A program made the translations under genes and the position numbers. From Clostridia bacterium (GTDB taxonomy: Bacteria > Bacillota > Clostridia > TANB77 > CAG-508), in contig DBGCHZ010000037.1 of NCBI GenBank assembly GCA_048355915.1, positions 907 through 64,906 on the forward strand: a stretch of DNA of 64,000 bases, given 5' to 3'. The notes under the pieces are model-generated. The model searched no databases and was not told the DNA's origin. It saw nothing but the letters and a program-made list of their open reading frames with translations. Shown here one piece after another: positions 21,219-61,019 of the stretch. The first letter of the stretch is position 1; each line of letters begins with the position of its first letter.

Positions 21219-23234
21219 ATGAAGGAAAAAACTATTGAAGAAAAAAAAGAAATTAATAATGATTCTAATTTAATAGAGAAAAAAAATGTTGAAGAGCCAA
21301 AAAAAAATATAGAAGAGAAAGAAACTAGTACAATACAAAAAGAAAAAAAACAAGAAAAAAAATTAAGAGAAGAAAAAGAAGATAAAAAAACAAAAAAAGA
21401 AATTGTTAAAGAAAACGAAAAAAAGAATAAAGAGAAAAAAGAGAAGCATTCAAAAAAGGAAAATAAAGATAAAGAACAAAAAGATAATGACACAGAGAGT
21501 AAGTTTAAAAAGATAGAGAATAATAAAAAAGCTAAATCAGAATTTGAAAAAATGAAAGATCAAAAAGAACAAACTATAAAAAAACGTAAAAAAAGAAAAA
21601 GAACAATAATAATAAGTTTAATTTTAGTAATAGTAATGGCAATTTTCTCTACAATATTTGCATTCATAAATATAAACAATGAAAAAATAATAAGTGGTGT
21701 TACAATAAAAGGTATAGAAGTTTCAGGACTAACAAAAGAAGAAGCAATGGCTAAATTAGAAACAATATATTCTGAAAAGTTAGAAAAAGATTTAAAAGTA
21801 AAATATGGTGAATATGAGTCAGAATTAAATCCAACACTTATGGAAGTAAAATATGATATTGAAAAGGCAGTAAATGAAGCATATTTACTAGGAAAAGATG
21901 GAAATATATTCATAAATAATTACAAAATTTTAAGCACATTGATACAGAAAAAAGATATAAATGTTGAAATGACACTTAATGAAGAAATAACAAAACAAAC
22001 CATAAATGATATGGGACAAAATTTATCAGGAATAATGTTAGAATCAAGTTATACTATTGAAGGAAACAAACTAATTATAACAAAAGGAAAAGATGGAATA
22101 GTTATAGATACAGATACATTATTAAATAAAATAAAACAAAATTTAAATGATATAAATAAAACAGAAGAATATATAGAAATTCCAACAATAAATAAATCAC
22201 CTGCACCTATTGATATTGACAAGATACATAGTGAAATATATAAAGAAGCAAAAGATGCATATTATACAAAAAATCCATTTACGGTATATCCAGAAATAGA
22301 AGGTGTAGATTTTGATGTAGAAGCAGCTAAAAAGATGATCGAAACAGAAAATAAAGAAGAATATGTAATACAATTAAAAATAACAAAACCAAAAGTAACA
22401 ATAGACCAAATAGGGCCAGAAGCATTTCCAGATCAATTATCAACATTTAAAACTAGATATGATGCAAGTGACAAAGATAGAACAACAAACTTAATACTTG
22501 CTTGTAAAAAATTAGACGGAAAAGTAATAATGCCAGGAGAAACATTTTCATATAATGCAACTTTAGGTCCAAGAAGCACGGCAACAGGATATAAAAATGC
22601 AAAAGTATATGAAAATGGAGAAGTAGTAGATGGAATAGGTGGAGGAATATGTCAAATATCTTCAACTCTATATAATGCAGCATTAATGGCAGACATGGAA
22701 ATTGTAGAAAGAAGAAATCATCAATTCGTAACATCTTATGTAGGAGCTGGAAGAGATGCAACAGTTGTATATGGATTAACTGATTTTAAATTTAAAAATA
22801 CTAGAAAATATCCAATAAAATTAAAAGCTTCTTCTGTAAGTGGAATTGCAACAATATCAATTTTTGGAATAAAAGAAGAAGAAAGAGAATATACATACAC
22901 ATTTAAAACAAATACAATATCTACAATACCATTTACAACAAAATATGTAGAAGATGCGAATTTAAAACCGGGAGAAGAAGTGGTTAAACAAAAAGGTGCA
23001 AATGGTTTAGTAACACAAACATATATGACAAAAATGAAAAATGGAAAGATAATATCATCACAGTTATTATCTAAGGATACATATAGTGCAATGCAAAAAA
23101 TTATTAGAAGGGGAAAAGCGAAAACAACAGCTGTTCCAGAAAATAAACCGGCAGGTAATGAAGAAAATAAAGTTCAAGACAAAATAGATACAAATACACA
23201 AAATGATGATAAACAAGAAAATTTAATACAATAA
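21219..23234 (+). CDS. VanW-family protein with G5 domain and a long K/E-rich N-terminal tail
   Basis: about 120 aa of KE low complexity, one TM helix, VanW core (GETFSYNATLGPRS...GGGICQISSTLYNAA), C-terminal G5-like segment. Confidence 0.75.
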   Translation: MKEKTIEEKKEINNDSNLIEKKNVEEPKKNIEEKETSTIQKEKKQEKKLREEKEDKKTKKEIVKENEKKNKEKKEKHSKKENKDKEQKDNDTESKFKKIENNKKAKSEFEKMKDQKEQTIKKRKKRKRTIIISLILVIVMAIFSTIFAFININNEKIISGVTIKGIEVSGLTKEEAMAKLETIYSEKLEKDLKVKYGEYESELNPTLMEVKYDIEKAVNEAYLLGKDGNIFINNYKILSTLIQKKDINVEMTLNEEITKQTINDMGQNLSGIMLESSYTIEGNKLIITKGKDGIVIDTDTLLNKIKQNLNDINKTEEYIEIPTINKSPAPIDIDKIHSEIYKEAKDAYYTKNPFTVYPEIEGVDFDVEAAKKMIETENKEEYVIQLKITKPKVTIDQIGPEAFPDQLSTFKTRYDASDKDRTTNLILACKKLDGKVIMPGETFSYNATLGPRSTATGYKNAKVYENGEVVDGIGGGICQISSTLYNAALMADMEIVERRNHQFVTSYVGAGRDATVVYGLTDFKFKNTRKYPIKLKASSVSGIATISIFGIKEEEREYTYTFKTNTISTIPFTTKYVEDANLKPGEEVVKQKGANGLVTQTYMTKMKNGKIISSQLLSKDTYSAMQKIIRRGKAKTTAVPENKPAGNEENKVQDKIDTNTQNDDKQENLIQ

Positions 23235-23247
23235 AAATAGATAGGCT

Positions 23248-23290
23248 GACCTATAATAAAAAATATTTTAGGCCAGTCTTTTTTTATTTT
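23248..23290 (+). terminator. terminator GGCTGACC...GGCCAGTC + T7
   Basis: 8-bp stem with one mismatch and a long loop. Confidence 0.5.
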
Positions 23291-34222: not shown

Positions 34223-34318
34223 AAAATCAAATATTTATTACGAATTAATCATAGAATAGTACACTAATTGACAAAAGCAAATAAAAAGGCTAAAATAAAT
34301 ATGTTAGGAGGGGATTTT

Positions 34319-35269
34319 ATGTTAAAAATATATAATACAGACATAGAAACAAATAGAATAGAAGAAATAAAAGAATTTAAAAAAGGAAGTTGGATAAGTT
34401 TAATAAACCCCTCAGAGGTAGAAATAAGAAAAGTATGTGAAAATGTAAATATTCAAGAAGACTTTATAAGAGATGCTTTAGATTACGAAGAAAAAGCCAG
34501 AATTGATGCAGAAGAAGATGATGGAACAATATTATTTGTAATAGATGTACCAATAATAGAAAAAAATGAAGAAAATGATGTATATACAACAATGCCATTA
34601 GGAATGATAGTAGTAAGAGATGACTTTTTTATAACAGTATCATTAAAGAAAAATAAAGTAATAGAAGATTTTGAAAAAAGAAAAATTAAAAATTTTCAAA
34701 CTTATAAAAAAACAAGATTCATATTCCAAATATTTTATTTAAACTCATCATATTTTTTAAATTACCTAAAACAAATAAATAAGGAAACAGAAATAGCAGA
34801 ATATATATTAAAAAATTCTATGAAAAACAAAGAATTATTAAAATTATTGAGTTTAGAAAAAGGTTTAGTATATTTTACAACATCACTAAAATCAAATGAA
34901 ATTGTCATGGAAAAGACAATGAGAGGAAAAATAATAAAATTATATGATGATGATGAAGATATATTAGAAGATGCTATCATAGAAAACCGACAAGCAATAG
35001 AAATGTCGCAAATATATAGCAATATTTTAAATGGAACAATGGACGCATATGCTTCAATTATTTCAAATAACTTAAATGGAGTAATGAAATTTTTAACATC
35101 AATAACAATAGTATTAGCAATACCAACAATGATATCAAGCTTTTGGGGAATGAATGTAAACTTACCATTTCAAAATAGTCCAATAGGATTTCCAATTATG
35201 ATAGTAATTGCAATAATAACAACATTGGCAGTAACTTGGTGGTTAAAAAGAAGAGATATGCTTAATTAG
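34319..35269 (+). CDS. corA: CorA-family magnesium transporter
   Basis: C-terminal two TM helices with the GMN motif (FWGMNVNLPF); ATG at 34319 after GGAGGGG. Confidence 0.85.
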   Translation: MLKIYNTDIETNRIEEIKEFKKGSWISLINPSEVEIRKVCENVNIQEDFIRDALDYEEKARIDAEEDDGTILFVIDVPIIEKNEENDVYTTMPLGMIVVRDDFFITVSLKKNKVIEDFEKRKIKNFQTYKKTRFIFQIFYLNSSYFLNYLKQINKETEIAEYILKNSMKNKELLKLLSLEKGLVYFTTSLKSNEIVMEKTMRGKIIKLYDDDEDILEDAIIENRQAIEMSQIYSNILNGTMDAYASIISNNLNGVMKFLTSITIVLAIPTMISSFWGMNVNLPFQNSPIGFPIMIVIAIITTLAVTWWLKRRDMLN

Positions 35270-35289
35270 AATTTAATAAAGAAAATAAG

Positions 35290-35531
35290 AAAAAGGACTG
35301 TCCTAAAATATATAAAATATTTCTGGTAATAGTCCTTTTTAATTATATTCCATAGATAAGAACTTGTAAGCTCTACAAATGAACCTTTTTCTATCGCTGA
35401 AAATTTATTTTTATAAATTTTCACGGGAACATTATTCATTTGAAGAGCTTAACAATTTCTAATCTATTCCATATAATATAAAAAGGACTATTACCAGAAA
35501 TATTTTATATATTTTAGGACAGTCCTTTTTG
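35290..35531. repeat. composite palindromic element, copy A: 43-bp perfectly complementary arms (35294-35336 / 35484-35526) around a ~147-bp core
   Basis: left arm AGGACTGTCCTAAAATATATAAAATATTTCTGGTAATAGTCCT is the exact reverse complement of the right arm; the core is shared with copy B. Confidence 0.85.
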
Positions 35532-35537
35532 AAAAAA

Positions 35538-36839
35538 CTAATAATAAAGTATTTCAGGAATTCGATTTAATTCAGAAGTTAGAAAATTAAACATATTATC
35601 ACCGATAGAAGTATCAATTCCCTGCTTATACAAAGAAACAGTTTTATTAATATCTAATAATTTCATCTTTTTATCGCTTAAAGCATTATTTTCATACATA
35701 TAAATAGGAACATAATTAACTTTATCAATGCTAATATTGCCATTAGTATGTTTTGTAATAGTTAAAGTCAAAATTATTGATGTTCTTGTATCTTTTAAAT
35801 TTTGGTCACTTATGAAATTACCTAAAGAATAAATTATAAAACCATCTTTTGAAGAACCATCTTCCAATGTTATAGTTTTTTTCTCTATTTTTTGTAATAC
35901 ATGAGGATGAGAGCCTAAAATTATATCAACACCATTTTTAAATAAGAAATCAGAAAGTTCAGTTTGAGTAGTATTGACATTAGCAGTATATTCATCACCC
36001 CAATTCATATAAGCAATTATAATATCAGCATTTTGAGATTTTGCTTTATCAATTTGTTTTTTTATTAAATCTTTATTAGAGGTATTAATACAAAATTCTT
36101 TATCAGAAGGAATAGCTAAATTTGTTGTATTACAAGTATAATTAACAAAAGCTAATTTAATGCCTTTAACATATTTTATTAAAACATTATCTTGTTCTTC
36201 CTGAGTTTTATTAGTACCAACATGAGAGATATCAGCTTTATCAAGTACATCTAAAGTTCTAGATAAACCATCAAATCCATAATCTAAAGAATGGCTGTTG
36301 GCAGTAGCTATAACATCTAATCCTAATTTTTTCAAATTATAAGCCAAATTATCAGGAGTATTAAAACGAGGATAATTACTATAACCTTTACTCTCACCAG
36401 CAAAAGAAGTTTCTAAATTAGCAATAGATATATTAGAATTTTGAATATAATAACTAATATCATCAAAAACATAAGAAAAATTATAAGAATCGGTAGAAGA
36501 ATTATAAGCATCTAAATACTGTGTATTATGGCACATAATATCTCCTAAAGCTGTTAAAGTAAATGTAGTATCAGAAAGTTCTTTATTAGAATTGGTATCA
36601 GAAGATGTGTTTTCATAATTATTTGAAATAGAGTTATTAATTTCTTGATTTGCCATATCTACTATTTTTTTATAATTTATCCAATTTTTTGTTATATTAA
36701 AAATAACTACAACTAAAAAAACAACAGATAAGATAATTACTAATTTAACTAAACCCGTTGTCAATTTTTTTGTATCATCAGTATTTATAAAGTTCCTTCT
36801 ATTTCTATTAGACCTATTATTTCTTCTCAAATAAATCAC
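35538..36839 (-). CDS. capA: CapA/PgsA-family metallophosphatase-like poly-gamma-glutamate biosynthesis protein
   Basis: N-terminal TM helix; CapA-type motifs (LTALGDIMCH, GSHPH, GNFISDQ). Confidence 0.7.
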   Translation of the reverse strand: MIYLRRNNRSNRNRRNFINTDDTKKLTTGLVKLVIILSVVFLVVVIFNITKNWINYKKIVDMANQEINNSISNNYENTSSDTNSNKELSDTTFTLTALGDIMCHNTQYLDAYNSSTDSYNFSYVFDDISYYIQNSNISIANLETSFAGESKGYSNYPRFNTPDNLAYNLKKLGLDVIATANSHSLDYGFDGLSRTLDVLDKADISHVGTNKTQEEQDNVLIKYVKGIKLAFVNYTCNTTNLAIPSDKEFCINTSNKDLIKKQIDKAKSQNADIIIAYMNWGDEYTANVNTTQTELSDFLFKNGVDIILGSHPHVLQKIEKKTITLEDGSSKDGFIIYSLGNFISDQNLKDTRTSIILTLTITKHTNGNISIDKVNYVPIYMYENNALSDKKMKLLDINKTVSLYKQGIDTSIGDNMFNFLTSELNRIPEILYY

Positions 36840-36943
36840 CCCATTAATTTAATATAAAGTATCATAAAAAATAAAAAAATTCAACCAAATGAATAATTTT
36901 TCAAAAAAATAGAATAATAATAAAAAATAAAAGGAGGAAAAAT

Positions 36944-37132
36944 ATGAAAATAATAGATAAAATAGCATTAGTTCTAATAATTATAGGAGCCATAAATTGG
37001 GGATTAATAGGATTATTTAACTTTAATCTTGTAGCAACAATATTTGGAGATATGACTATAATTTCAAGAATAATTTATGGATTAGTCGGATTATCAGGAC
37101 TATGGGGAATTAAATTATTATTTGAAGATTAG
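36944..37132 (+). CDS. DUF378 family small membrane protein
   Basis: GAINWGLIGLF...GLVGLSGLW signature; RBS AAGGAGGA. Confidence 0.7.
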   Translation: MKIIDKIALVLIIIGAINWGLIGLFNFNLVATIFGDMTIISRIIYGLVGLSGLWGIKLLFED

Positions 37133-37379
37133 TAAAATAGTATAGATTATATAAAATATATAATGTATTAAAATAAAAAATTACCTTATTACATTAAAGT
37201 CTAATTAGATTAGAGTAAAGTGTAAGAAAGGTATTTTTTATTGAGACATTTTCTAAAATGAATTATTAAGACAATATCACAAATGAATTAGAATATGCTA
37301 TACCAAAATAATGTTATACTTGAAAAAAAAGCCTAAATAGTATATAATTACTAACGATAACAATATAGGAGGAGATAAA

Positions 37380-38963
37380 ATGCTAAGTGCAAACGGAGTA
37401 ACCGTAAGATTTGGAAAAAGAGTATTATTTGAAGATGTAAATATAAAATTCGGAAAAGGAAATTGTTATGGAATAATAGGAGCAAATGGAGCAGGAAAAT
37501 CAACATTTTTAAAAGTATTATCAGGTGAACTAGAACCAAGCAAAGGAGATGTAAGTTTAGAAAAAGGAGAAAGACTATCAATACTAAAACAAGACCACTT
37601 TGCTTTTGAAGAATACACCGTAATGGACACAGTATTAATGGGAAATAAAGAGTTATATGACATAATGAAAGCAAAAGATGAAATATATGCAAAACCAGAC
37701 TTTTCAGAAGAAGATGGAATGAAAGCAGCAAAACTAGAAGAAAGATTTGCAGAACTTGATGGATGGAATGCAGAATCAGATGCTGCGATGTTATTAAATG
37801 ATTTAGGAATAGTACCAGAAAATCACTATAAATATATGAAAGAAATAGAAGCAAGAGAAAAGGTAAAAGTATTACTAGCACAAAGTTTATTTGGAAATCC
37901 AGATGTTTTACTATTAGATGAGCCTACAAACGACTTAGATATGAAAAGCATAAACTGGTTACAAGAATTTTTAATAGACTTTGAAAACACAGTAATAGTA
38001 GTATCACATGACAGATATTTCTTAAACAAAGTTTGTACACATATAGCAGATGTAGACTTTGGAAAAATAAAAGTATATCCAGGAAACTATGATTTTTGGT
38101 ATGAATCAAGTCAATTAGCATTAAAACAAGCAAGAGAACAAAACAAAAAGAAAGAAGAAAAAATAAAAGAACTACAAGACTTTATTGCAAGATTTAGTGC
38201 CAACGCTTCAAAATCAAAACAAGCAACATCTAGAAAGAAAACACTAGAAAAAATTGAATTAGAAGAAATAAAACCATCAAATAGAAAATATCCATATGTA
38301 GACTTTAAACCAGACAGAGAACCAGGAAGAGAAATATTGCAAGTTAAAAATATTAGTAAAACAGTAGAAGGAGTAAAAGTTTTAGATAATGTATCTTTTA
38401 CAGTAAAAGAAGGAAACAAAATAGCATTTCTAGCAGATAATGAATTAGCAAAAACAGTATTATTCCAAATAATAGAGGGAGAATTAGAACCAGACGAAGG
38501 AGAACTAATCTGGGGAACAACAATAACAAAATCATATTTTCCGAAAGATAATAACTATTTATTTGAAACAGATGAAAACATAACAGAATGGTTAAGAAAA
38601 TACTCAAAAGATCCAGACGAAACATATGTAAGAAGTTTCTTAGGAAGAATGTTATTCTCAGGAGATGAAGCACTAAAACAAGTAAAAGTATTATCAGGAG
38701 GAGAAAAAGTAAGATGTGTACTATCAAAAATGATGTTATCAGGAGCAAATTTCTTAATATTTGATGAACCAACAAACCACTTAGACATGGAAAGTATAAC
38801 ATCTGTAAACGAAGGAATGAAGAAATTTATAGGAAACATCTTATTCACATCACATGACCACGAATTAACACAAACAGTAGCAAACAGAATAATAGAAATA
38901 AAAGAAGACGGAAAAATAATAGACAAAGAATGTACATATAATGAATATTTAGGAATTGAATAA
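37380..38963 (+). CDS. ABC-F family ATPase (EttA/YkpA-like, two NBDs with about an 80-aa linker)
   Basis: two Walker A sites (GANGAGKST, second-NBD equivalent), two LSGGE signatures, no TM domain. Confidence 0.85.
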   Translation: MLSANGVTVRFGKRVLFEDVNIKFGKGNCYGIIGANGAGKSTFLKVLSGELEPSKGDVSLEKGERLSILKQDHFAFEEYTVMDTVLMGNKELYDIMKAKDEIYAKPDFSEEDGMKAAKLEERFAELDGWNAESDAAMLLNDLGIVPENHYKYMKEIEAREKVKVLLAQSLFGNPDVLLLDEPTNDLDMKSINWLQEFLIDFENTVIVVSHDRYFLNKVCTHIADVDFGKIKVYPGNYDFWYESSQLALKQAREQNKKKEEKIKELQDFIARFSANASKSKQATSRKKTLEKIELEEIKPSNRKYPYVDFKPDREPGREILQVKNISKTVEGVKVLDNVSFTVKEGNKIAFLADNELAKTVLFQIIEGELEPDEGELIWGTTITKSYFPKDNNYLFETDENITEWLRKYSKDPDETYVRSFLGRMLFSGDEALKQVKVLSGGEKVRCVLSKMMLSGANFLIFDEPTNHLDMESITSVNEGMKKFIGNILFTSHDHELTQTVANRIIEIKEDGKIIDKECTYNEYLGIE

Positions 38964-38977
38964 TTTAGTGATTTTGG

Positions 38978-39890
38978 TGATTTTGGGGTCGGAGACAAAA
39001 ATCATTTATATTAAAGACAAACTTTAAATAAAAATTAAATTTAAACATAAAAATCACAATAAAAATACAAAAAGGACATAAAAAAATGATAAAAAGAGGA
39101 AAAAAGAAAGGTAGTGAACGTCATTTCAAGACAAGTACGAGAAAATCTAGAATCCTCTTTTTTTCATGTAATGGTACAAGGAATAGGAAAAGAATATATT
39201 TTTTTAAAAGAACAATACATAAAAATGTATTTAAGACTATTAAATGAAAAGAGAAAAGAATTAAGAATAAAAATAATTGCATATTGCATAATGAACAACC
39301 ATGCACATCTGTTAATTAAAGTTCAAAATATAAAAGAACTATCAAAATTTATGCAAAAAGTTAATAGATGTTATGCACAATACTACAATTTTATGGAAAA
39401 TAGGGTAGGATATGTTTTTAGAGATAGATATAAATGTCAAATAATTAAAAATCAAAAACATTTAATTCAATGTATAAAATACATACATCAAAATCCCGTA
39501 AAAGCTGGAATGGTAAAAAAGGGACAAGAATATAAATTTTCATCATATAATTTTTATCAAAGAAATGTAAATAAATTAAATAAAGTTTTTTCAAATGAAG
39601 AATTAACATATATATTAAAATCAAACAATCCATATGGGAATTTTATAGATGTCGATAATAATTCAGAAGAAATAATAAATAATTTAATAGAAGAATTTTT
39701 AATAAAAGAAAATGTAAAAATATTTGAAATTTTTGAAAAAGATGATATACTAAAAAAGCTAATAAGATATTTAAAATTTGAAAACGGAATAAAATATACA
39801 GAAATAATGAAAAAATTAGATATCACAAAAGGTAAAATGGAAAGATTGAAAATCAAATAAAGATGATTTTTGTCTCCGACCCCAAAATCA
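38978..39890. mobile_element. RAYT / IS200-IS605-like Y1 transposase element bounded by perfect 28-bp inverted repeats
   Basis: TGATTTTGGGGTCGGAGACAAAAATCAT at 38978-39005 and its exact reverse complement at 39863-39890; tandem GTGATTTTG duplication at the left edge. Confidence 0.7.
39114..39860 (+). CDS. Y1/HUH tyrosine transposase (Transposase_17 / REP-associated tyrosine transposase-like)
   Basis: FHVMVQGIGKEYIF, HuH motif CIMNNHAHLLI, GYVFRDRYK, YIHQNPVKAGMV; GTG start. Confidence 0.75.
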   Translation: MNVISRQVRENLESSFFHVMVQGIGKEYIFLKEQYIKMYLRLLNEKRKELRIKIIAYCIMNNHAHLLIKVQNIKELSKFMQKVNRCYAQYYNFMENRVGYVFRDRYKCQIIKNQKHLIQCIKYIHQNPVKAGMVKKGQEYKFSSYNFYQRNVNKLNKVFSNEELTYILKSNNPYGNFIDVDNNSEEIINNLIEEFLIKENVKIFEIFEKDDILKKLIRYLKFENGIKYTEIMKKLDITKGKMERLKIK

Positions 39891-39910
39891 TGGAAAAGAG
39901 AGGATAAAAA

Positions 39911-42094
39911 ATGGATAAGATAATATCAACAATAGCACAAGAATTAGGTGTTAAAAATTCACAAGTTGAAAATACAATTAAATTAATTGATGAGGGAAAC
40001 ACTATTCCCTTTATAGCGAGATATAGAAAAGAGGTAACAGGAGGATTAAGTGACGAAGTATTAAGAAACTTAGGTGAAAGATTAAGTTATCTAAGAAACT
40101 TAGAACAAAGGAAAGAAGATGTTATTCATTCTATTGATGAACAAGGAAAGTTGACAGATGAAATATTACAAGCTGTTGCAATTAGTAAAACTTTAGCAGA
40201 AGTAGAAGATATATATAGACCATATAAACAAAAAAAGAAAACAAGAGCAACGGTTGCAAAAGCAAAAGGCTTAGAACCTTTGGCAGAAATAATACTTATG
40301 CAAGAAGAAAAAACACCAATTGAAGAAATTGCAAAACAATATGTAAATATAGATAACTTATCAGAAGAAGATAAAAAGAATAAGGACAAAGCTGTTGCAA
40401 CAGTAGAAGACGCAATTCAGGGTGCATTAGATATAATTGCAGAAAATATATCAGATAATGCAAAATATAGAAAAGAAATAAAAAGACTTTTATTTAGAGA
40501 AGGTCTAATAATTACAAAAGCAAGTAATGAAGATGAAAAATCAAATTATGAGATGTATTATGATTATAGTGAGCCTTTAAAATATATACCAAGTCACAGA
40601 ATATTAGCAATAAATAGAGGAGAAAAAGAAACCTTTATAAAAGTAAAAATAGAAAAGCCAGAAGAAAAAATTCTTCAATATATAGAAAGAGACATTTTAA
40701 AAGGAGAAACACAATTTACAAGTATATTAAAAGATACAATATTAGATGCATTTAAAAGACTAATAGAGCCATCAATAGATAGAGAAATTCGTTCAGATTT
40801 AACTGAAAAAGCAGAAGATAAAGCTATAAAAGTATTTGGACAAAATTCTAAACAACTATTATTAGGAGCTCCAATAAAAGGTAAAACAGTAATGGGATTT
40901 GACCCAGCATATAGAACAGGGTGTAAAATTGCAGTAATAGATGAAACAGGAAAATTATTAGACTATACAACAGTATATCCAACAGAACCACAAAATGATG
41001 TTGAAAATGCAAAAAAAGAACTATTAAAATTAATAGAAAAAGATAAAATAGATATGATAGCAATAGGAAATGGAACTGCATCAAGAGAATCAGAAATGTT
41101 TGTTGCAGAAATGATAAAAGAAGCATCAAGACCAGTTCATTATGTAATTGTAAGTGAAGCAGGAGCATCAGTATATTCGGCATCAAAACTTGCAACAGAA
41201 GAATATCCAGATATAAATGTATCAATTAGAGGAGCAATATCAATAGCAAGAAGATTGCAAGACCCATTAGCAGAACTAGTAAAGATTGACCCAAAAGCAA
41301 TAGGAGTAGGGCAATATCAACATGATGTAAATCAAAAGAAACTAGCAGAAAGTTTGACAGGAGTTGTAGAAGATAGTGTTAATAAAGTTGGGGTTGATGT
41401 AAATACTGCAACACCATCACTACTTTCATATGTATCAGGAATAAACAATACAATAGCTAAAAATATAGTAAAATATAGAGATGAAAATGGAAAACTAAAA
41501 AATAGAAAGCAATTACTAAAAGTGCCTAAGCTAGGAAAAGTAGCTTTTGAACAATGTGCAGGATTTTTACGTATATTAGATGGAGATAATCCATTAGAAA
41601 TAACAGCAGTACACCCAGAAAGTTATGAAGCAACAGAAAATTTATTAGAAAGTATAGGATTTAATAAAGAAGATATACGCGACAAAGAAAAATTAGGACA
41701 GATAATAAAAAAACTAAGCACAATTGATGTTATTGAAATGTCAAAAGAATTAGGAATAGGGGAGATGACACTTACAGATATTATAAGTGAATTATCAAAA
41801 CCAGGAAGAGACCCAAGAGAAGATATGCCAAAACCAATTTTAAGAAGTGATGTTTTAAAATTAGAAGATTTAAAAGAAGGAATGATATTAACAGGAACAG
41901 TAAGAAATGTAATAGATTTTGGTGCATTTGTTGATATAGGAGTAAAACACGATGGACTTGTACATATATCAGAAATGAGTGATAAATTTATAAAAAATCC
42001 ATCAGAGGTGGTTTCAGTTGGAGATATTGTAAAAGTAAAAGTAATAAAAATTGATAAGGAAAGACAAAAAGTTGGATTATCAATGAAATGTTAA
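39911..42094 (+). CDS. tex: transcription accessory protein Tex
   Basis: HTH, YqgF, HhH and C-terminal S1 domains (GTVRNVIDFGAFVDIG). Confidence 0.9.
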   Translation: MDKIISTIAQELGVKNSQVENTIKLIDEGNTIPFIARYRKEVTGGLSDEVLRNLGERLSYLRNLEQRKEDVIHSIDEQGKLTDEILQAVAISKTLAEVEDIYRPYKQKKKTRATVAKAKGLEPLAEIILMQEEKTPIEEIAKQYVNIDNLSEEDKKNKDKAVATVEDAIQGALDIIAENISDNAKYRKEIKRLLFREGLIITKASNEDEKSNYEMYYDYSEPLKYIPSHRILAINRGEKETFIKVKIEKPEEKILQYIERDILKGETQFTSILKDTILDAFKRLIEPSIDREIRSDLTEKAEDKAIKVFGQNSKQLLLGAPIKGKTVMGFDPAYRTGCKIAVIDETGKLLDYTTVYPTEPQNDVENAKKELLKLIEKDKIDMIAIGNGTASRESEMFVAEMIKEASRPVHYVIVSEAGASVYSASKLATEEYPDINVSIRGAISIARRLQDPLAELVKIDPKAIGVGQYQHDVNQKKLAESLTGVVEDSVNKVGVDVNTATPSLLSYVSGINNTIAKNIVKYRDENGKLKNRKQLLKVPKLGKVAFEQCAGFLRILDGDNPLEITAVHPESYEATENLLESIGFNKEDIRDKEKLGQIIKKLSTIDVIEMSKELGIGEMTLTDIISELSKPGRDPREDMPKPILRSDVLKLEDLKEGMILTGTVRNVIDFGAFVDIGVKHDGLVHISEMSDKFIKNPSEVVSVGDIVKVKVIKIDKERQKVGLSMKC

Positions 42095-42099
42095 AATAG

Positions 42100-42338
42100 T
42101 TTAGGACTATCCTAGAATATAGAAATATTTTGGGGTCTAGTCCTTTTTAATTATATTCCATAGATAAGAACTTGTAAGCTCTACAAATGAACCTTTTTCG
42201 ATTGTCAAAATTTTATAGAAATAAAATTTTGCAAGAACATTATTCATTTGAAGAGCTTAACAATTTCTAATCTATTCCATATAATATAAAAAGGACTAGA
42301 CCCCAAAATATTTCTATATTCTAGGATAGTCCTTTTAT
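42100..42338. repeat. composite palindromic element, copy B: 42-bp perfectly complementary arms (42103-42144 / 42292-42333) with the same core as copy A
   Basis: arms differ from copy A at several positions but remain exact reverse complements of each other; arms contain TTTTGGGGTC. Confidence 0.85.
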
Positions 42339-42342
42339 AAAA

Positions 42343-60590: not shown

Positions 60591-61019
60591 AAAATACTAA
60601 TCATAGTGTCAGTATGACTAGCATTTTCCCACAATTTTTTTATCTTAAACTCTTGCAATTAGTATATAGCCCATATATTCAGTACTGTACGTTTGATTTT
60701 ACGACATTCCATGTCGTCAGCACTGTCCATACATATTCAACTAATATTATGTCTGACACCCATAACTTCTATGAAAGCTCTAGTACTTAATCAGTAGTGG
60801 CTCTGATATATGTAATGTTAATTTACCCTATAGCAACTAGAATATTAATTTATATAGTTCTACCACCGTACAAACTAATTTTTAAGAAACAGGGTAAACT
60901 CAATATTTTTGCCAAGATCCATCAGTCCTTTCATAATTAAATTTACCCATAAGGGTTTATGTAATAAGTAATATATCACAAAAAGAGATAAAAGTAAATA
61001 ATTAAGGAGAGTGATTACG

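Follow-up and report, generated by a model that had tools for sequence, protein, structure and literature searches.

How can two intergenic palindromes share a virtually invariant interior and yet carry outer arms that differ between the copies but, within each copy, are exact reverse complements of each other? This question is raised by a stretch of DNA from a member of the Clostridia (Clostridia bacterium, NCBI GenBank assembly GCA_048355915.1, contig DBGCHZ010000037.1, positions 907 to 64,906 of the forward strand; hereinafter the window, that is, the entire stretch of 64,000 nucleotides (nt) that was analyzed), in which two copies, denoted A and B, of a palindromic element of approximately 240 base pairs (bp) occupy the spaces between convergent genes. 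[quoted passage not shown]

Two palindromes at convergent gene ends

An inverted-repeat search of the window delineated copy A at positions 35290-35530, between corA (34268-35269, + strand) and the PGA_cap gene capA (35538-36839, - strand), and copy B at positions 42103-42333, between tex (39911-42094, + strand) and the gene for an HD-GYP response regulator (42343-43524, - strand); the genes of each pair are convergent. The first-pass annotation of this DNA had already placed both copies at convergent gene ends, with coordinates that are right within a few bases, and its claim of exact complementarity between the arms of the same copy is borne out for all 52 nt in copy A and all 47 nt in copy B. 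The full layout of the element is AGGACT-X31-AGTCC-TTTTTA / left core half / tip / right core half / TAAAAA-GGACT-X'31-AGTCCT. In copy A, the left arm (35290-35341, + strand), which reads AAAAAGGACT-X31-AGTCC-TTTTTA, is mirrored by the right arm (35479-35530, - strand), and in copy B, the arms span 42103-42149 (+ strand) and 42287-42333 (- strand). The two arms are separated by exactly 137 nt in each copy. This central module (35342-35478 in copy A, 42150-42286 in copy B) is an imperfect palindrome that, in copy A, consists of the core halves 35342-35391 and 35427-35478 and a variable tip of 'type A' between them (35392-35426), which is an 11-bp A/T hairpin (35398-35408/35413-35423) with a TTTT loop; the corresponding tip of copy B, 'type B', is located at 42200-42234.

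Comparison of the two copies shows no differences among the 114 positions of the core halves, 15 differences in the 35-nt tip, where the changes are paired as well, and 8 differences in 40 positions (~20%) of the arms. Thus, the near identity of the shared core that the first-pass annotation had reported was correctly described, whereas the paired changes in the tip had been missed. A 36-nt word from the core matches only copies A and B in the window, with zero matches expected by chance, and the inverted-repeat scan of the whole window detected no further comparable palindrome. Either strand of each full element is predicted to fold into a single hairpin of ~240 nt, with a free energy of -123 and -126 kcal/mol and a z-score of about -22 relative to shuffled sequences. 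Exactly the same arm sequences of copy B are present in independent metagenome assemblies (MEGAHIT k127 and SPAdes-type), which indicates that the palindrome is not an assembly artefact.

A small family in uncultured gut Clostridia

Exact half-core patterns, run against the GTDB species representatives, JGI metagenomes and IMG/VR, together with the inspection of orthologous loci, delineated a family that occupies at least 6 loci and includes three variants (1, 1b and 2), with arms of 40-71 nt and total lengths of 216-279 bp. Complete copies were found at 5 loci, namely, corA/capA, tex/HD-GYP, the 3' end of galE in two lineages, and a locus in contig L017; the sixth locus (L012) holds half of a copy at a contig end. 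The corA/capA locus of another lineage (L032-L034) carries the element, as do tex/HD-GYP loci elsewhere (L013, L014, L016) and the region downstream of galE in L015 and L040-L049, whereas the copy in L011/L017 lies between tandem genes. Variant 1b, likewise downstream of galE (L050, positions 2212-2490, and also L051 and L052), has arms that are perfectly complementary over 67-71 nt and are unrelated in sequence to those in the window, around a module of exactly 137 nt; the carrier of this variant is probably the same species as that of the window. In subfamily 2 (L030, 9447-9662; L014, 7905-7997), the arms are perfect over 40 of 40 nt and ~92% alike at two different loci, the core halves are ~60% similar, TATAAT boxes are missing, and the arms are not terminator-like; the sites of the window that are orthologous to the subfamily 2 loci (~37131-37380 and ~49900) lack this subfamily. 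Arm similarity does not simply follow the locus: the arm of the L014 copy at the tex/HD-GYP locus is 93% identical to the arms of the L032 copy at the corA/capA locus but only 79% identical to the window arm of copy B.

All the copies found are confined to one clade of uncultured human-gut Clostridia, with the closest public records being human-gut metagenome-assembled genomes (MAGs) and metagenome contigs of up to 1.6-1.8 Mb ('uncultured Clostridium sp. UMGS1673', 'ERR321600-bin.3', 'Clostridia bacterium'). One of the copies is adjoined by spoVA genes. The first-pass annotation could not assign the arrangement to any described repeat family, and neither could we: there was no match in Rfam at either gathering or permissive thresholds, apart from sub-threshold microRNA and small nucleolar RNA noise, no BLAST match for subfamilies 1 and 2 among plasmid records, and none for subfamily 1 among phage records; scans of viral contigs yielded one chance match (L018) and none thereafter. 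A pattern for the whole palindrome found no match among the GTDB species representatives, probably because MAG contigs break inside the element. Indeed, many short-read contigs end within it (L004-L012, L014, L016), and SPAdes-type assemblies of one species disagree on the tip type at the tex/HD-GYP locus; the element breaks or scrambles assemblies.

Sites that are free of the element are known as well. In a sister species (L019, with a Tex protein 90% identical to that of the window), ordinary terminators are present at both sites, and no element was found within 22 kb. L029 also lacks the element, and the alignment with the window breaks at 42098|42339. The element-free sites of L019, L029 and L030 are not cleanly empty but are filled by other sequence, by remnants or by deletion derivatives. 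As a separate observation, the cassettes at the tex/HD-GYP junction are wholly different between lineages (L019 versus L029 and L030); in L019, the 322-nt spacer (12185-12506) contains a promoter resembling TTGACA...TATAAT, a Shine-Dalgarno-like GGAGG and a tiny open reading frame (ORF), followed by an ordinary terminator.

The arms as putative terminators

Every arm of the element contains a hairpin of its own that is followed by the universal TTTTTA. The outer and inner halves of the stem of this hairpin covary between copies (GGACU/AGUCC, GUCAGUCU/AGACUGGC, UUAGUCC/GGGCUGG and ACUAGC/GCUAGU); conservation of the inner half adjacent to TTTTTA, GGGCTAGTCC, is partial, with the outer half changing in concert. 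The hairpins also show a consistent strand bias. The inward RNA strand folds better than the outward strand in 12 of the 13 arm-type hairpins, which include all 12 element arms, with mean fold energies of -17.7 and -9.8 kcal/mol, respectively; the only hairpin without this bias is a solo one at position 23244 of the window. For the left arm of copy A, the inward fold, followed by U5A, is at -17.7 kcal/mol against -14.4 kcal/mol for the outward one; the respective values are -18.8 and -11.6 kcal/mol for the left arm of copy B, and -25.2 and -14.8 kcal/mol for the 67-71-nt arm of variant 1b. Moreover, G·U pairs account for 40 of the 234 pairs (17%) in the inward hairpins, in contrast to nearly none in the outward ones. 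The combination of the inward bias with the G·U pairs is the mark of selection on an RNA hairpin, as in intrinsic terminators.

In addition, the inward folds (-7 to -25 kcal/mol, 9-22 pairs, then U5A) have the features of Rho-independent terminators, the elements abut the 3' ends of genes, and the arm hairpins start 5-35 nt past the stop codons. In L013 and L032, the two arms are not complementary to each other, yet each of them retains its own terminator fold. From the predicted folds, the strand bias and the position, we infer that each arm is a Rho-independent terminator for the gene that reads into the element. By this assignment, the left arms of copies A and B would terminate corA and tex, respectively, the right arm of copy B would terminate the HD-GYP response regulator gene, and the right arm of copy A, on the basis of complementarity and fold, would be the mirror-image terminator of capA. 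The local hairpin with its T-run would then stop an incoming transcript ahead of the center of the element. The function of bidirectional termination proposed in the first-pass annotation is thus supported; its description of arms bounded by AGGACT...AGTCCT and followed by five T residues in both orientations is accurate for the window, but only the inner T-run (TTTTTA), and not the outer one, is common to the whole family.

The solo hairpin mentioned above (23244-23284, + strand; GGCTGACCTATAAT-AAAAA-ATATTTTAGGCCAGTCT-T7), which was detected with a hidden Markov model of the arms (E = 2e-4), is located directly behind the gene at 21219-23234 and could be left over from an element arm or be related to one.

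Complementarity between the arms

The pairing between the two arms of a copy is of a different nature than the pairing within each arm. It is strictly Watson-Crick, with no G·U among 99 pairs, against the 17% in the inward hairpins of the arms themselves. Comparison of six copies with RNAalifold identified 25 pairs that changed on both sides and 6 that changed on one side. Three comparisons of orthologs or alleles yielded 17 fixed differences in the arms that are symmetric, in that both arms of one element depart from both of the other, and no unmatched ones occur in copy A (winA), copy B (winB) or galE allele a1. The arms themselves evolve at an approximately neutral rate, as orthologous arms differ by 10-25% compared with 14-23% at the four-fold degenerate sites of the adjacent genes.

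The expectation that substitutions in the arms are compensated is thus correct for the window copies but does not extend to all members of the family. The arms of L013, which is a single low-coverage contig, differ by an 8-nt indel and ~5 mismatches; in L032-L034, that is, in three assemblies, 5 columns of the arms are unmatched; and a one-arm-only A-to-G change is present in four near-identical strains. The first-pass annotation had named copies with non-complementary arms as the observation that would speak against its interpretation, and L013 and L032-L034 are such copies. Given that the unmatched arms of these copies still fold as terminators, the long stem is not required. The first-pass annotation had offered two interpretations of the complementarity, selection for one long stem and hairpin-templated repair. 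The lack of G·U pairs between the arms, in contrast to their frequency within the arms, disagrees with selection on a single long RNA stem, and repair, a process at the DNA level, is the better-fitting of the two. Altogether, the comparative patterns suggest that copying between the arms at the DNA level, rather than selection for an extended RNA stem, accounts for the complementarity; resetting of the arms is frequent but not invariable. The accompanying argument of that annotation, namely, that terminal inverted repeats (TIRs) recognized by a transposase would be identical between copies, has no general force, and the arms of subfamily 2 are in fact ~92% conserved between loci.

The central module

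By contrast with the arms, the module is nearly frozen. The core halves of any two subfamily 1 copies differ at 0-3 of the 114 positions, and this near identity extends to orthologous copies in lineages in which the neighboring genes are ~17% different at neutral sites. The tips are identical within a type and differ between types at 5-15 of the 35 positions, with 4 tip pairs changed on both sides. All copies deviate from a perfect palindrome in the same way: TTCC is present in both halves on the + strand, one A·A pair is mismatched, and there is a bulge of 1 nt. The inner helix of variant 1b is changed on both sides, from CTACAAATGAA/TTCATTTGAAG to CCAAAAAAGG/CCTTTTTAGG, with the A·A mismatch kept. 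The arms of all subfamily 1 and 1b copies are 137 nt apart and those of subfamily 2 are 136 nt apart, regardless of whether they are 40, 45, 47, 52 or 67-71 nt long.

Promoter-like boxes are located within the outer 38-40 nt of each half. These are the best sigma-70-type matches of their regions, both are directed outward, and they are kept in all subfamily 1 and 1b copies. In copy A, TTAACA-17-TATAAT (35449-35477, + strand; 11 of 12 consensus positions, the top-scoring match in the region) faces the right arm and capA, and CTTACA-17-TATAAT (35342-35370, - strand; 10 of 12) faces the left arm and corA; the consensus matches in copy B are at 42257-42285 (+ strand) and 42178-42150 (- strand). 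Conservation that far exceeds that of neutral sites implies a role of the module that depends on its sequence or structure. The candidates for this role are a binding or propagation site that would be read in a folded or strand-specific form, or a promoter/operator cassette, perhaps a divergent one.

The 27-codon micro-ORF noted in the first-pass annotation is not conserved and was rejected. Its frame is open in the three tip types; however, it lacks a ribosome-binding site, variant 1b is devoid of the ATG, and nothing equivalent is present in subfamily 2. The possibility of a type I toxin was dismissed as well since the peptide, as read from the sequence, is not hydrophobic.

Inversions and deletion derivatives

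Two alleles of the galE copy, a1 and a2, come from strains with flanks that are 99.5-99.9% identical. The central 149 nt of a2 are 100% identical to those of a1 but inverted, and the arms of the two alleles differ at 11 positions, all symmetric. The tip loop, too, is inverted between samples of variant 1b, with TTTT in L050 and AAAA in L052. Three derivatives arose by deletion at short direct repeats (L039, L030 and a short form of the galE copy). The short form, in which 85 nt between TCTT repeats are missing, is carried by a long-read polished contig (L047, 1.64 Mb) and by an NCBI assembly (L049), and such center-deleted derivatives are common in one species. L039 retains one arm and 20 nt of the other, with the junction at TTTTA, and L030, also a long-read polished contig, has a solo near-perfect hairpin composed of two outer arm halves, with the junction at AAATATTT. 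Furthermore, L031, L036 and L037 contain what appears to be a diverged half element (39 of 50 nt; the score of 22.5 compares with 17 as the highest value among 500 shuffles), a similarity that is significant for one ungapped 50-nt block but, in the case of the L031 spacer, not under loose gapped scoring.

Template switching is known to perfect and homogenize inverted repeats and to invert their spacers (PMC5941160, PMC7202029, PMC8604942). The co-occurrence of homogenized arms, inverted spacers and deleted centers in the present family is what this literature describes for inverted repeats subject to template switching (PMC5941160, PMC7202029, PMC8604942). The apparent swapping of tip types between loci was set aside as evidence of gene conversion because assemblies of the same species disagree (L001, L002 and L016 versus the window and L003), and the identical core blocks of 56-58 nt exceed the SPAdes k-mers in length.

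Possible origins of the element

Under the interpretation that we favor, the element would end both convergent genes, and the module would be shielded from read-through. The arms would be maintained as an inverted repeat of DNA that is repeatedly reset by intramolecular recombination or by template switching during replication, such that a mutation in one arm would be either erased or copied onto the opposite arm; the same process would, on occasion, flip the module or the tip loop, and slippage would delete the center. Several observations weigh against this scenario. Efficient correction of the arms should also erase the single mismatches of the module, so their persistence calls for additional selection. 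The arms of variants 1, 1b and 2 are unrelated, although the ends of the module are identical, and the relationships of arms and tips are discordant, so that reassortment or de novo generation of arms fits at least as well as divergence followed by homogenization. The arms of galE alleles a1 and a2 differ by ~30% within one species, and their flanks contain no cluster of single-nucleotide polymorphisms. The promoter-like boxes are mere consensus matches and are absent in subfamily 2, and the arms are not flagged by a simple terminator scan, whose loop limit of 3-8 nt excludes them. With respect to mobility, neither target-site duplications nor a clean empty site nor an autonomous partner was found in the material compared; mobility is surmised solely from the multi-locus distribution and the discordant arm relationships. 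Finally, several of the copies compared come from short-read MAG contigs, and the tip types in SPAdes assemblies may be chimeric.

An alternative is a scheme in which the module alone is the mobile unit: it would land next to a terminator, and fold-back (snap-back) synthesis would copy the neighboring sequence in inverted orientation, so that the arms would be perfect at birth, specific to the locus and subject to decay thereafter. We consider this a minority possibility, to be entertained but hardly preferred. It would readily accommodate a module that is 98-100% identical everywhere between arms of 40-71 nt that, at one extreme, are 93% alike and, at the other, are unrelated, at a spacing of 136-137 nt throughout, as well as the opposite orientations of the module in two alleles at one site, the existence of solo arm-like terminators and the G·U signature of genuine terminators, that is, of selection at the RNA level, in the arms. 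It also agrees with the occurrence of module mutations in the copies with unmatched arms (2-3 in L013, 1 in L032, 1-2 in L017) and their absence from the perfect copies. However, in the 64-kb window and the dozen loci scanned, the arm motif was encountered without the module only twice, as solo hairpins, of which the one in L030 looks like a center-deletion product of two outer arm halves; L039 evidently originated from a full copy by deletion; and the arms appear to travel with the module, being 93% alike between the L014 copy at tex/HD-GYP and the L032 copy at corA/capA and ~92% alike across loci in subfamily 2. The semi-conserved inner stem half GGGCTAGTCC, with which the outer half covaries, weighs against the scheme as well. 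Moreover, we know of no bacterial transposition pathway that yields inverted target duplications. In a related and similarly tentative formulation, the module would be a new kind of selfish or regulatory hairpin unit, read in a folded or strand-specific form, as its mismatches persist even where the adjacent helix is altered on both sides, that generates or resets its own perfect flanking repeats by fold-back synthesis and captures adjacent terminators, in other words, a 'self-symmetrizing' unit; in that case, the interior would be conserved and the termini free, to our knowledge, the reverse of all described MITEs. Two further schemes were rejected: insertion of the module within the loop of a terminator already in place, for which AAATATTT would be the target duplication, is at odds with each arm being a complete hairpin with covarying stem halves, and a direct target duplication of a terminator conflicts with arms that are 100% alike when inverted and far less so as direct repeats. 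The notion that transcription of the entire element yields a single long and perfect RNA hairpin, or that the element forms a cruciform, and that selection on the stem drives the compensatory substitutions draws on the extreme stability of the predicted 240-nt fold (z of about -22), on the 25 two-sided changes across six copies and on the finding that Correia and ERIC transcripts are substrates of RNase III/E (PMC10969869). Nevertheless, it is improbable: G·U pairs are missing and one-sided intermediates are few, the terminator in the first arm should halt inward transcripts, copies with non-complementary arms persist in several samples with their arm-local folds kept, center-deleted derivatives are common in one species, and perfection over 47-71 bp is far beyond what selection on RNA structure usually maintains.

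Invertons, in which a site-specific recombinase flips a promoter-bearing segment, are common in gut bacteria. The perfect inverted repeats around a 137-bp segment with promoter-like boxes, and the presence of both orientations in two strains of one species at galE, might suggest that the module is flipped in this manner so as to swap a stronger for a weaker outward promoter. We find a programmed switch very hard to credit. At the corA/capA and tex/HD-GYP loci, the orientation does not vary among assemblies or lineages; given its near symmetry and the box at either end, the module would be little altered by a flip; no single recombinase site is conserved among the differing arms, and no recombinase gene is located next to the copies. 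Correia elements, for their part, are also reported to invert (PMC10969869), which counts in favor of inversion here. Equally remote is mobilization, in the manner of a REPIN or a bacterial interspersed mosaic element (BIME), by the Y1 transposase encoded between the two copies (39114-39860, + strand), which resembles the REP-associated tyrosine transposases (RAYTs; REP, repetitive extragenic palindrome). Inverted REPs flank this gene, whose distance from either copy is 3-4 kb; REPINs consist of two inverted hairpin units and a spacer, lack target duplications and undergo compensatory changes (PMC3116915); and the strand-specific asymmetries of the module are of the kind that HUH enzymes read. 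Yet the flanking REP, GATTTTGGGGTCGGAGACAAAAATC, is unrelated to the arms and the module and has dispersed copies of its own, the RAYT occurs in L019, with no element within 22 kb, L013 carries the element and lacks a RAYT at the site, and REPINs conserve the REPs and vary the spacer, which is the opposite of the arrangement described here. As neither the REP sequence nor the pattern of presence and absence correlates with the element, a link to the neighboring RAYT was rejected.

Neighboring features of the window

The RAYT-like gene matches Pfam Y1_Tnp and scores 74.9 bits with NCBIfam REP_Tyr_transpos, against a cut-off of 80, and is enclosed by 35-nt inverted REPs, GATTTTGGGGTCGGAGACAAAAATC (38978-39890 of the window). 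It is missing in L013, where one REP is left, and its place is taken by an AAA_14/DUF4143 gene (L022) or by an unknown gene encoding 291 amino acids (L030/L031); a further copy of the REP is found at position 6544 of L011 (7184 of L017). This looks like a separate REP/RAYT system with a presence/absence polymorphism.

The region around corA, tex and the HD-GYP gene (34268-50300 of the window) differs from its counterparts in L013, L014 and L029-L032 by 6-10% overall and by 14-23% at four-fold degenerate sites, whereas ten sampled contigs of the galE region with an identical GalE protein differ by 0.1-0.5%. Conceivably, this part of the window is an island of divergence in a species complex. 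Elsewhere in the window (60591-60841, - strand), there is a FuFi-1 RNA (Rfam RF02986; 85.5 bits, with the gathering score at 59.6).

Implications

To return to the reading that we favor, the element would be a natural case in which homogenization of an inverted repeat at the DNA level yields 'compensatory covariation' (25 two-sided pairs) without selection on an RNA stem. The diagnostic features are the lack of G·U pairs and one-sided intermediates between the arms as opposed to the G·U-rich, strand-biased local hairpins, and they amount to a warning for covariation-based discovery of noncoding RNA. The element inverts the usual logic of MITEs, in that an invariant interior is combined with termini that are variable but perfect, at a fixed spacing of 137 bp, and this inversion implies either strong constraint on a non-coding module or a mechanism that regenerates arms. 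In more practical terms, it would be a compact natural double terminator/insulator cassette from Clostridia, and it repeatedly breaks short-read metagenome assemblies of a common gut lineage.

Comparison with known systems

Like MITEs, the elements are short (216-279 bp), non-coding and multi-copy (at least 6 loci), and have perfect or near-perfect inverted repeats of 40-71 nt. Unlike what is expected of MITEs, there is no shared direct repeat, and hence no target-site duplication, in the flanks of copies A and B, L015/a1, a2, L017, L032 and L030; instead of conserved termini that match those of an autonomous insertion sequence, the arms differ by 7-45% or are unrelated; and the half-core scans of GTDB representatives, JGI metagenomes and IMG/VR retrieved short elements only. 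Inverted repeats around a short promoter-bearing segment, with both orientations among strains, are also found in invertons, but the present element has neither a conserved recombinase site nor a nearby recombinase, its module is nearly symmetric, and the orientation of copies A and B is fixed across lineages. The perfected repeats, homogenized arms and inverted spacer are shared with the products of quasi-palindrome correction and template switching (PMC5941160, PMC7202029, PMC8604942); this, however, is a mutational process rather than a family of elements, and by itself does not explain the surviving mismatches of the module.

The closest parallels are found among the palindromic intergenic repeats of other bacteria. 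The Correia elements (CREE/NEMIS) of Neisseria, too, are intergenic palindromes of 100-250 bp whose ends are inverted repeats and whose core is conserved; they carry outward sigma-70-like promoters at one or both ends, can form long transcript hairpins, have been reported to invert and influence the neighboring genes (PMC2649163, PMC10969869). What is peculiar to Correia elements is the conserved 26-bp TIRs, the TA target duplication and the hundreds of copies, whereas the clostridial element has variable ends of 40-71 bp that serve as putative terminators, an invariant interior and a low copy number; with no 26-bp TIR, no TA duplication and a host other than Neisseria, the resemblance is functional only. 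REPINs and BIMEs share with the element a spacer that separates two mutually inverted hairpin units, the capacity of the whole to form a long hairpin, compensatory changes and the lack of target duplication (PMC3116915), so that the architecture is that of a REPIN, but REPs are conserved 16-25-mers that match the REPs flanking a RAYT gene, and here, the hairpin units are the least conserved part and the 'spacer' is conserved. SPRITEs, too, are interspersed repeats of Firmicutes that are terminator-like, reside near gene 3' ends, are enriched between convergent genes and have no demonstrable target duplication (PMC3049150); they consist of a single long stem with a U-rich tract and have neither a mirrored pair nor a conserved central module. 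Altogether, the element is best filed as a palindromic intergenic repeat of the Correia/REPIN/SPRITE kind, with an unusual, inverted logic of conservation (PMC2649163, PMC10969869, PMC3049150).

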